Part shown: piece by piece, positions 19,354 through 22,331 of the stretch | Layout: every line of letters starts with the position of its first letter | How positions within the stretch are numbered: position 1 is the first letter of the stretch | Assembly (NCBI GenBank): GCA_005889405.1 | Contig: VBFY01000056.1 | Coordinates: 46,389 to 110,388 of the forward strand | Direction: 5' to 3' | DNA length: 64,000 bases | Origin: Chloroflexota bacterium | GTDB taxonomy: Bacteria; Chloroflexota; Limnocylindria; P2-11E | Notes under the pieces: generated by a model | Told to the model about the DNA's origin: nothing | What the model saw: the letters and a program-made list of their open reading frames with translations, nothing else | Databases searched by the model: none | Position numbers and translations under genes: made by a program

Positions 19354-22331
19354 TGCAGCAGCCAGGAGACGACCGCGTCGTCGGCGCCGACCTCGAGGAC
19401 GAGATGCGCAAGGCGTACCTCGACTACTCGATGAGCGTCATCGTCGCGCGCGCGCTACCTGACGTCCGCGACGGACTCAAGCCGGTCCAGCGCCGGATCC
19501 TGTACGGAATGCACGAGATGGGCCTTCGCAGCGACCGGCCATACCGGAAGTCTGCGGCGATCGTCGGTGAGGTGATGGGGAAGTACCACCCGCACGGCGA
19601 CGCGCCGATCTACGACGCCCTCGTGCGTCTCGCGCAGGACTTCGCGGCACGCTATCCGCTCATACAGGGCCAGGGGAACTTCGGCTGCTTCTCCGGCGAT
19701 ACGAAGGTCGAGCTCTACAACGGCGAGCAGAAGACGCTCGCCGAGCTCGTCGACATGGCGCACCGCGGCGCGCGGGTCGATGTGTTCACCGTCGACGCGC
19801 ATCGCAACGTGCGCATCAAGCCGATGCGCGCCCCACGCCTGGTCCGCCGCAGCGACCCGGTGGTGAAGGTCACGCTCGAGTCCGGTGCGGAGATCGTGTG
19901 CACCCCCGACCACCGCTTCATGATGCGCGACGGGACATACCGCGAGGCGCAGCAGCTGAAGCCGAAGGACCAGCTCATGCCGTTCGCGCGCTCGTCGATC
20001 CCCGAGCGCCTGCACCGTACCGGCGCGTTCCCGATCCCCGCGAGCCTCGCGCAGAAGGTCGCGAAGATGGAGCCGGCGGGCCGCGCCGACGTCTACGACC
20101 TCACCGTCGACGTCACGGGGAACTTCGCGCTGGGCGCCGGGATCTTCGTCCACAACTCGATCGACGACGACCCGCCTGGGGCGCCGCGCTACACCGAGGC
20201 GCGCCTCGCGGCCGTCAGCGCCGAGATGCTCACGGATATCGAGAAGAACACCGTCGACTTCATCCCCAACTACGACAACCGGCACCAGCAGCCGACGGTG
20301 CTGCCGGCACGCCTGCCGAACCTCCTGGTGAACGGCTCCGCGGGCATCGCCGTGGGCATGGCGACCAACATCCCGCCGCACAATCTGCGCGAGATCGTCG
20401 CCGCGACGAAGCGGCTCATCGAGGACCCCGATCTCACGAACGATGACCTCTGCGAGACGGTCCTCGGCCCGGACTTCCCGGGCGGCGGGATCATCTACCG
20501 CTTCGAAGAAGAGAAGAACGTCGAGACCGGCAAGTCCGAGCGCGTCGACGGTATCCGCCGCGCCTACGCGAACGGCCGCGGCCGCATCGTCATGCGCGCG
20601 AAGGCGCACAAGGAGGAGATGCGCGGTGGCCGGGAGGCGATCGTGGTGAGCGAGCTGCCGTACGTCGTCAACAAGGCCTCGCTCATCGAGAAGATCGCCG
20701 AGCTGGTCCAGAACAAGCGCCTCCAGGGCATCAGCGACATCCGCGACGAAAGCGACCGTGAGGGCATGCGGATCGTGATCGAGGTGAAGCGCGATGACTC
20801 GGCGGATCGCGTCCTGAACAACCTCTTCAAGCACACCGCGATGCAGTCCGCGTTCAACCTAAACATGCTCGCGCTGGTCGACCAGGGCCCGCGCGTGCTC
20901 TCGCTCAAGGAAGTCCTGCAGCACCACATCGATTACCGGCGCGAGGTCATCCGTAGGCGCACCGAGTTCGACCTCACGAAGGCAAGGGAGCGGGCGCACA
21001 TCCTCGAGGGCTTCAAGATCGCGCACGACAACATCGACGCGATCATCAAGCTTATTCGCGCGCACAAAGGCCAGGAGCAGCTCCTCATCGGCAAGCTGCG
21101 CGAGGGATTCGGCCTATCCGAGGCGCAGGCGAAAGCGATCCTGGAGATGCAGCTCCGACGCCTGTCCGGACTGGAGCGCGACAAGCTCGAGCAGGAATAC
21201 GAGGCGACGATCAAGCTCATCGCAGAGCTCGAGTCGATCCTCGCGAATCCGCGAAAGATCCTCACGCTCATCAAGGCCGACCTCGACGGGCTCAGCGAGA
21301 GCTTTGGCGACGACCGCCGCACGGAGATCCGTGACGACGTGCCCGGACAGTTCACCGACGAGCAGCTGGTCGCCGACGAGGATGTCGTCATCACGCTCTC
21401 GAGCCGCAACTACGCCAAGCGGATGCCGCTCTCGACATACCGCGCGCAGCACCGCGGGGGCCGCGGCGTCATCGGGATGCAGACGCGCGACGAGGATGAT
21501 GTCCAACACCTCGTCATCGCCCGGAACCACGACAGGCTTTACGTCTTCACCGATCGCGGCCGCGTGTTCGCGCTCAAGGTCTACGAGCTGCCGGACGCGA
21601 GCCGGACGGCAAAGGGCACGCCGATCCAGAACATCCTCGAGGCGATGCAGCAGGGTGAGCGCGTCTCGGCGCTCGTCGCGCTGCGCGACACGACGTCGGC
21701 GGAGTTCCTGATGATGGCGACGCGAAAGGGCTTCGTGAAGAAGACCGCGCTATCGGAATACGCGACCGTCCGACGCGCCGGGCTCATCGCGATCGCCCTC
21801 CGTAAGGGCGACGAGCTGGCATGGGCCGCGGCGTGCGCGAAAGACGACCGCGTGATCCTCGCGACGCGCAAGGGCAAGGGCATCTCGTTCAAGGCCTCCG
21901 ACGCCCGTCCGATGGGACGGCCGACCCAGGGCGTCACCGGGATCCGCCTCCAGAAGGGCGACACGGTCGTTGGCATGGGCATCGCGCGGCCGCGCACGCA
22001 GGTCCTCTCGGTGACGGAGAACGGCTATGGCAAGCGCACCGCGGTCGAGGAGTTCCCGACCCAGGGCCGCGGCGGCCAGGGCGTGATCCTCGCCTCTCTC
22101 GGGAGCAAGACCGGCGAGGTCGCAGCGATGCAGATGGTCGATGAGGGCAGCCAGGAGATCCTCCTGATCTCGACCACGGGCGTCGTGATCCGCACGCCAC
22201 TCGACCAGATCCGGGTCCTGGGCAGGCCGACGATGGGCGTGAAGGTGATGACCACCGGCGACGCGAAGATCGCCTCGATCGCAACCTTCACCACGACCCG
22301 ACCGACCCAGACTCAGCTTCCGGTGAAGTGA
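19350..22331 (+). CDS. gyrA: DNA gyrase subunit A (precursor containing a mini-intein)
   Basis: Canonical GyrA N-terminal domain ([24 protein letters not shown], catalytic Tyr in APRYTEARL) and six-bladed C-terminal domain. It is interrupted after GQGNFG by a ~157-aa Hint domain. Confidence 0.95.
19686..20156 (+). mobile_element. GyrA mini-intein (Hint domain, no homing-endonuclease domain)
   Basis: Begins with Cys (CFSGDTKV), contains block B TPDHRF and ends ...GIFVHN, followed by a Ser +1 nucleophile. Removing it restores the conserved GNFG-SIDDDPP...RYTEARL. Confidence 0.8.

Follow-up and report, generated by a model that had tools for sequence, protein, structure and literature searches.

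The stretch of 64,000 nucleotides analysed here (contig VBFY01000056.1 of a Chloroflexota bacterium, class Limnocylindria; hereafter the window) encodes on its forward strand a DNA gyrase subunit A (GyrA) that is interrupted by a Hint domain. The translated gyrA open reading frame scores 1095 bits against the NCBIfam gyrA equivalog NF004043 (cut-off 902) and 1060 bits against TIGR01063 (cut-off 877), and Pfam recovers from it the DNA_topoisoIV domain and six DNA_gyraseA_C blades. The inserted segment comprises exactly 157 codons, reads CFSGDTKVE...TPDHRF...GIFVHN, and lies in frame within the gyrA reading frame. An earlier note, prepared from the DNA alone, had placed a 157-residue GyrA mini-intein at 19686-20156, with Cys1, TPDHRF and VHN motifs, a serine at position +1 and an insertion point 12 residues ahead of the catalytic tyrosine, all of which proves exact on translation. 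The features of the gene are the following, with positions as in the window:

19350 to 22331, forward strand: gyrA precursor open reading frame, 993 residues with the intein and 836 after the predicted splicing (open reading frame list, NCBIfam and Pfam)
19350 to 19685, forward strand: N-extein, residues 1-112, ending in GQGNFG, with Gly-1 equivalent to Escherichia coli Gly110
19686 to 20156, forward strand: class-1 mini-intein (Hint domain), 157 residues (translation, Pfam, NCBIfam, PDB sequence matches and fold search)
19686 to 19688, forward strand: Cys1, the block A nucleophile, codon TGC
19902 to 19913, forward strand: block B, T73-P-D-H76 (TxxH), located by residue positions
19998 to 20042, forward strand: 15-residue linker, intein residues 105-119, lying after block N4 and before the block F hairpin
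20088 to 20132, forward strand: block F, D135-V-Y-D138-L-T-V-D...N146-F-A-L, with glycine at the position of the usual histidine (145, nucleotides 20118-20120)
20151 to 20156, forward strand: block G, His156-Asn157 (penultimate histidine and cyclising asparagine), codons CAC AAC
20157 to 20159, forward strand: Ser+1, the C-extein nucleophile, equivalent to E. coli Ser111, codon TCG
20190 to 20192, forward strand: catalytic tyrosine codon, residue 124 of the spliced protein, equivalent to E. coli Tyr122 by gapless alignment to 6rks_A
20157 to 22331, forward strand: C-extein, comprising the remaining part of the winged-helix domain, the tower, the coiled-coil and the C-terminal beta-pinwheel (Pfam coordinates)

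The assignment of the inserted segment to the Hint fold is far beyond chance resemblance. Comparison with Hint-domain profiles, which the earlier note had recommended, places the Pfam Intein_splicing model (E=2.3e-16, 60.4 bits, cut-off 35.8) and the NCBIfam models TIGR01445 intein_Nterm (49.2 bits, cut-off 24.5) and TIGR01443 intein_Cterm (21.4 bits, cut-off 15.6) all above their cut-offs, with the splicing residues present. Phmmer matches in the PDB are all inteins (DnaE, NrdJ-1, RadA), the best at an E-value of about 1e-5. An AlphaFold model of the intein, with a predicted local distance difference test (pLDDT) score of 78.4 and a predicted template modelling (pTM) score of 0.71, retrieved 61 PDB chains at E<=0.001 in a Foldseek fold search, with E-values down to 2e-8 and template modelling (TM) scores of 0.70-0.78 against solved mini-inteins; every one of the 50 leading structural matches listed has the Hint fold, and apart from a few bacterial intein-like (BIL) and Hedgehog domains they are inteins. 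No endonuclease domain was detected in the intein by Pfam or NCBIfam, the only Pfam matches being Intein_splicing and Hint. About 25 residues separate block N4 from block F, and the total length of 157 residues is that of a mini-intein (range about 130-200 residues), in agreement with the description of the element as one without an endonuclease. The solved mini-inteins Npu and Ssp DnaE, NrdJ-1, Mtu RecA (delta-I) and Ssp DnaB share with it the Hint fold, a length of 139-160 residues and the class-1 residues, but they reside in other host genes and sites, are only 18-24% identical to it, and some are naturally split.

The insertion site is defined by alignment of the intein-free protein, which runs across the junction without gaps in both E. 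coli (6rks_A) and Staphylococcus aureus (6fqm_A) GyrA. In the former alignment query residues 12-225 correspond to chain residues 10-223, and the resulting offset of -2 places the site at Gly110|Ser111 (E. coli numbering; the bar marks the splice junction) and equates the tyrosine at +12 with the catalytic Tyr122. The catalytic tyrosine is, in other words, the twelfth residue past the GNFG|S splice junction. We take the site to fall in the winged-helix (CAP-like) domain, just past the quinolone-resistance-determining region (residues 67-106). The GyrA inteins of Mycobacterium xenopi and M. leprae resemble the window intein in their GyrA host, their class-1 character and their Cys1 and HN residues, and the mycobacterial and window sites belong to one 12-residue loop region of the winged-helix domain beside the catalytic tyrosine. 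However, the mycobacterial versions are inserted right after that tyrosine (RY|T) and have threonine at position +1. The canonical RY|T site of the window (20190-20195) is uninterrupted and empty. Phmmer detects no match between the window intein and the Mxe GyrA intein (PDB: 1am2) at E<=0.01; 1am2 ranks 30th in the fold search with a TM score of about 0.5; and the NCBIfam model NF038098 (GyrA_w_intein) reaches 884 bits against a cut-off of 1850, the intein portion alone giving E=0.15. GNFG|S and RY|T are two distinct sites occupied by two distinct intein lineages, and the proposal that the window element does not use the mycobacterial site is borne out.

Both sites are filled in some relatives of the window gene. 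A second intein of about 424 residues, bearing LAGLIDADG motifs and the junctions RY|C...SHN|TEAR, is present in 14 of 76 related Limnocylindria gyrA genes; it matches 1am2 at E=2e-49 and is a true Mxe GyrA allele. These double-intein loci are L042 (3001-4900), L005, L008, L010, L043, L044, L046-L048, L050-L052, L058 and L062. The low-GC GyrA representatives P0105 and P0111 also carry both inteins. At least two points of GyrA accept inteins; they lie 12 residues from each other and bracket the catalytic-tyrosine loop, and the relatives with both inteins offer a natural case for interference between neighbouring inteins.

The phyletic distribution of the GNFG|S occupant was surveyed in genome and protein collections. 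A scan of GTDB with one genome per species returned 391 stretches encoding a relative, and 76 of the best 80 loci, which were inspected, are Limnocylindria/Chloroflexota metagenome-assembled genomes (MAGs) with a 157-residue intein at the same junction and 74-96% identity. A HMMER search of 1.84 billion cluster representatives yielded 4712 intein-family relatives. The top 150 of these, which were inspected, include at least 12 separate 50%-identity GyrA clusters with the junctions G-Q-G-N-F-G|C and HN|S(I/V/L/Q)DGD...RY and inteins of 141-522 residues, and a follow-up profile search found the GNFG|C junction filled in 85 of 106 further protein clusters. GenBank proteins with the same junction come from Giovannonibacteria, Buchananbacteria and Parcubacteria of the candidate phyla radiation (CPR), and from Omnitrophica, Eisenbacteria, Euryarchaeota and Thermoplasmatales; several of these records carry the name "intein-containing DNA gyrase subunit A". 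The GNFG|S site already has an occupant in hundreds of public genomes, which makes the window element an ordinary, inherited intein, and the suggestion in the earlier note that it represents a new intein allele at a new site is contradicted by the filled junctions in these GTDB loci and protein clusters. On the contrary, inteins at the upstream point Gly110|Ser111 are widespread among uncultivated bacteria and archaea. The survey of Novikova et al. (2016; PMC4760082) counted 50 GyrA inteins, some of them in Chloroflexi, and Villain et al. (PMC9348778) dropped 23 intein-containing archaeal GyrA sequences from their dataset; the main text of neither gives insertion points. Our literature search found no paper that assigns the GNFG|S site a letter name or that deals with inteins of Limnocylindria; under the InBase convention the site could be GyrA-b. 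Four MAGs labelled Binatota, Bathyarchaeia, Acidiferrales and Saccharimonadales (L026, L031, L039 and L058, respectively) hold Limnocylindria-type gyrA contigs with an intein 80-83% identical to that of the window, probably as a result of bin contamination.

The intein belongs to a family unified by the signatures CTPDHRFML in block B and NFAL-AG-(V/I)FVHN in blocks F and G, and inserted, beyond GyrA, in GyrB, RtcB and ribonucleotide reductase. The NCBIfam RtcB-intein model matches the window intein at E=3e-27, and many of the top family representatives are multi-intein proteins. The same-site GyrA inteins of other phyla share with the window version the identical insertion point, Cys1, Ser+1 and both family signatures, and are 38-56% identical to it over the N-terminal splicing half and flank; unlike it, many are 350-520 residues long and include an extra domain with an HNH-like motif. 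The inteins in the Toprim domain of GyrB, such as those of Amycolatopsis pithecellobii (L078:3001-3474) and Chloroflexaceae UBA1466 (L080:3001-3423), are 43-47% identical to the window intein and share with it the C-terminal NFAL-AGVFVHN|S, though they are inserted at EGDSAGG|C...HN|SA. A related intein is found in the class II ribonucleotide reductase of a Pacearchaeota MAG (L079:2123-2611), the identity range for this and the GyrB inteins together being 37-47%. The inteins found at this GyrA site in other phyla resemble the window intein no more closely than the GyrB inteins do, so that a single origin of the GNFG|S occupants is not established.

In the large inteins at the same site (P0079, P0105, P0152 and P0178), the additional domain spans 200-370 residues and displays the motif V-R-H-H-x-D-F-N-x-x-N-N-x-x-x-N followed by repeated W-x-D-P-x-Y-R. 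Pfam finds no domain in that of P0079, and in that of P0178 only a sub-threshold HNH_3 match (E=0.019); it may represent an uncharacterised type of homing endonuclease. One sequence (P0024/L081) had the appearance of a Limnocylindria intein with an HNH_3-like segment (THILVYEALYGPVPG), but was rejected: its scaffold contains Ns, and the frame changes into the RtcB motifs GSGNHFIE...HSGSRGVGN. This ENA scaffold of 2123 nucleotides, in which the N-half of a gyrA intein precedes the HNH_3-like segment, is a probable chimera of two paralogous inteins, one of gyrA and one of RtcB, and was not used as evidence.

Relatives with an empty site, for which the earlier note had proposed a check, are common. 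Of the 115 closest homologues of the extein with sequence on both sides of the junction (64-76% identity), 109 have no intein there; many of these are named Limnocylindria, Limnocylindrales or Limnocylindrus, and the empty-site orthologues read GQGNFG-S(V/I)DGD. Comparison of the window (19665-19685 and 20157-20171) with P0312-P0393 indicates that the extein sequence varies with the state of the site: it reads PL(I/V)Q-GQGNFG | SIDDD where the intein is present, and mostly PLVD-GQGNFG-SVDGD where it is not. Exceptions are P0293 and P0297, in which SIDDD accompanies an empty site, and P0297 (74% identity) shares the unusual C-extein of the occupied type (SIDDDPPAHMRY). A lineage effect and co-adaptation between intein and extein are candidate causes of this co-variation.

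The patchy occupancy within the class, along with the presence of the intein family in many genes and phyla, might suggest a recently acquired and actively mobile allele that is homing into a new gyrA site, in which case it would be a marker of horizontal transfer. We consider this very unlikely, given that the element has no endonuclease domain and that all 76 occupied loci have the same 157-residue form. A comparison that took in the window and 70 Limnocylindria loci at species level, and covered 157 codons of the intein plus 112 of the adjacent extein, also argues against it. The median synonymous divergence (dS) is equal in intein and extein (0.614 and 0.616, respectively), and pairwise distances of the two are correlated (Mantel r=0.70, a value reached by 0 of 999 permutations). 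The composition of the intein is fully ameliorated, with a GC content of 0.69, and of 0.955 at third codon positions (GC3), against 0.66 and 0.908 in the exteins.

In the same comparison set the residues C1, T73, H76, D135, D138, H156, N157 and S+1 are invariant in 71 of 71 sequences, and C1, T73, H76, H156 and N157 remain invariant across a diverse alignment (A3, 63 rows). The ratio of non-synonymous to synonymous divergence (dN/dS) is 0.18 in the intein and 0.145 in the flanking extein. This pattern is, on the whole, characteristic of a mini-intein that is no longer mobile, has been inherited vertically and is under purifying selection, and whose competence for splicing appears to have been retained because it interrupts an essential enzyme beside the active site. 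Residue 145, the position of the block F histidine, is glutamine in 69 of the 71 sequences, glycine in the window alone, and histidine in the same-site inteins of other phyla shown.

The replacement of this histidine, and the deletions or chimeras encountered at this locus in metagenomic material (P0010, P0068 and the L081 scaffold), could be taken to indicate a decayed Hint insertion or a BIL domain that does not splice and stays in the mature protein, or else an artefact of assembly or annotation. In P0010 and P0068, both fragments of GyrA from metagenomes, in-frame deletions affect the intein or its surroundings. Such explanations appear extremely improbable in view of the invariance of all nucleophiles and assisting residues, the value of dN/dS, and the recurrence of the element in more than 70 independent assemblies. 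Moreover, the insertion lies in the winged-helix core, 12 residues from the active-site tyrosine of an essential enzyme. BIL domains are typically without a conserved +1 nucleophile or the C-terminal asparagine pattern and occur in variable, often secreted or non-essential proteins, whereas the domain in this case resides in GyrA, which is conserved and essential, and has the canonical HN|S.

Given the above observations, the element is in all likelihood a functional class-1 mini-intein that has become fixed in gyrA, an essential gene, in a soil and freshwater lineage of Limnocylindria (Chloroflexota). The precursor would be made with the 157-residue Hint domain in its winged-helix domain, between the quinolone-resistance helix region and the catalytic-tyrosine loop. 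Splicing would begin with an N-S acyl shift at the Gly(-1)-Cys1 bond, assisted by Thr73 and His76 of block B, and the hydroxyl of Ser+1 would then attack the thioester in a transesterification to give a branched ester. Cyclisation of Asn157 to a succinimide, with the assistance of His156, would release the intein, and an O-N shift would finally restore the Gly110-Ser111 bond and yield intact gyrase A. Having no homing endonuclease, the element would no longer be mobile and would pass down vertically with gyrA, and it would be kept intact because gyrase, an essential enzyme, would be inactive if splicing failed.

The anatomy, fold, insertion site, distribution, selection pattern and co-divergence of the element are observed, whereas splicing itself we infer from the essentiality of gyrA and the pattern of selection, and its chemistry is assumed to be that of a standard class-1 intein. 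Several points weigh against this interpretation. The block F histidine is absent, and splicing could be slow or conditional; this histidine aids asparagine cyclisation in many inteins, though it is not universally required. In the structural model the last 15 residues have pLDDT below 50 and the linker about 64, which renders the active-site geometry unreliable. Furthermore, the HNH label given to the extra domain of the larger homologues derives from a motif recognised by eye and the sub-threshold HNH_3 match already mentioned.

The most distinctive feature of the Limnocylindria version is its linker. At the amino-acid level it is invariant in 71 of 71 sequences, with a mean entropy of 0.04 (N-extein, 0.35; intein residues 1-104, 0.49), while its synonymous codon diversity is a normal 0.93. 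Over the 269 positions compared it is the second most conserved window of 15 residues, exceeded only by one region of 17 residues in GyrA. The linker occupies the place of the extra domain in the large same-site homologues, a position at which the linkers of mini-inteins are normally free to vary. The mini forms in other phyla keep the block F histidine and have linkers that are unrelated to it, in contrast to the Limnocylindria form with its invariant linker and glutamine or glycine. MAFFT sets the linker segment ERLHR against the helix W-E-F-x-H-x-L-A-D (EFAHR) of the larger homologues, and the linker may be a structural brace or the relic of a lost domain.

An alternative is that the intein still splices but has been domesticated as a conditional element, co-opted as a post-translational switch of gyrase, with the linker acting as the sensor or interaction surface for a signal (redox state, temperature or DNA, for instance). 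We regard this as improbable, if worth recording. The invariance of the linker against normal synonymous variation, which makes it as constrained as the top GyrA motif, would be consistent with such a role, as would the unrelated linkers of the other same-site mini-inteins, the retention of the endonuclease-free form across a deep clade, the missing block F histidine, and Cys72, which adjoins Thr73 of block B and is conserved in 69 of 71 sequences. There is also precedent, conditional splicing having been documented for the RadA and DnaB inteins. Yet purifying selection is expected in any case for an intein fixed in an essential gene, the linker may be a mere brace or domain relic as the alignment of ERLHR opposite EFAHR allows, and related Limnocylindria manage without the intein. 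There is, in the same vein, a small chance that the linker renders gyrase maturation dependent on a signal, perhaps acting with Cys1 and Cys72 and the missing block F histidine, or that it endows the excised intein with a second function. That the linker reflects any function at the level of the host, such as conditional splicing, is likewise doubtful.

With the preferred reading of a fixed and vertically inherited mini-intein, the existing understanding of inteins and gyrase is unchanged, and only the invariant linker suggests that there is more to the intein than a fixed selfish element. Since gyrA alleles with and without the intein coexist in Limnocylindria, it can serve as a marker of clades within the class. 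As a compact Cys1/Ser+1 mini-intein with a native glycine at position -1, it is also a candidate for protein engineering.

The gene order around gyrA (14961-25515) is parA, parB, gyrB, 4HBT thioesterase, gyrA, ftsE, ftsX and M23 peptidase. The gyrB gene (16646..18817) lies upstream of gyrA, with the small 4HBT thioesterase reading frame (18775..19353) between them. The window gyrB carries no intein, and the rest of the 64-kb window holds no second relative of the gyrA intein, the best other tblastn match having E=0.078. In GyrB, a stretch of some 85 residues between Toprim and GyrB_C (residues about 566-653; 18341-18605), with a highly charged segment inside, is covered by no Pfam model. An antisense open reading frame of 459 residues (19455..20834) overlaps gyrA, and long spurious reading frames of this kind are expected in DNA of 68% GC. 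The listed start of the 4HBT thioesterase reading frame overlaps the end of gyrB, and a 4HBT gene precedes gyrA on the related scaffold L081 as well.

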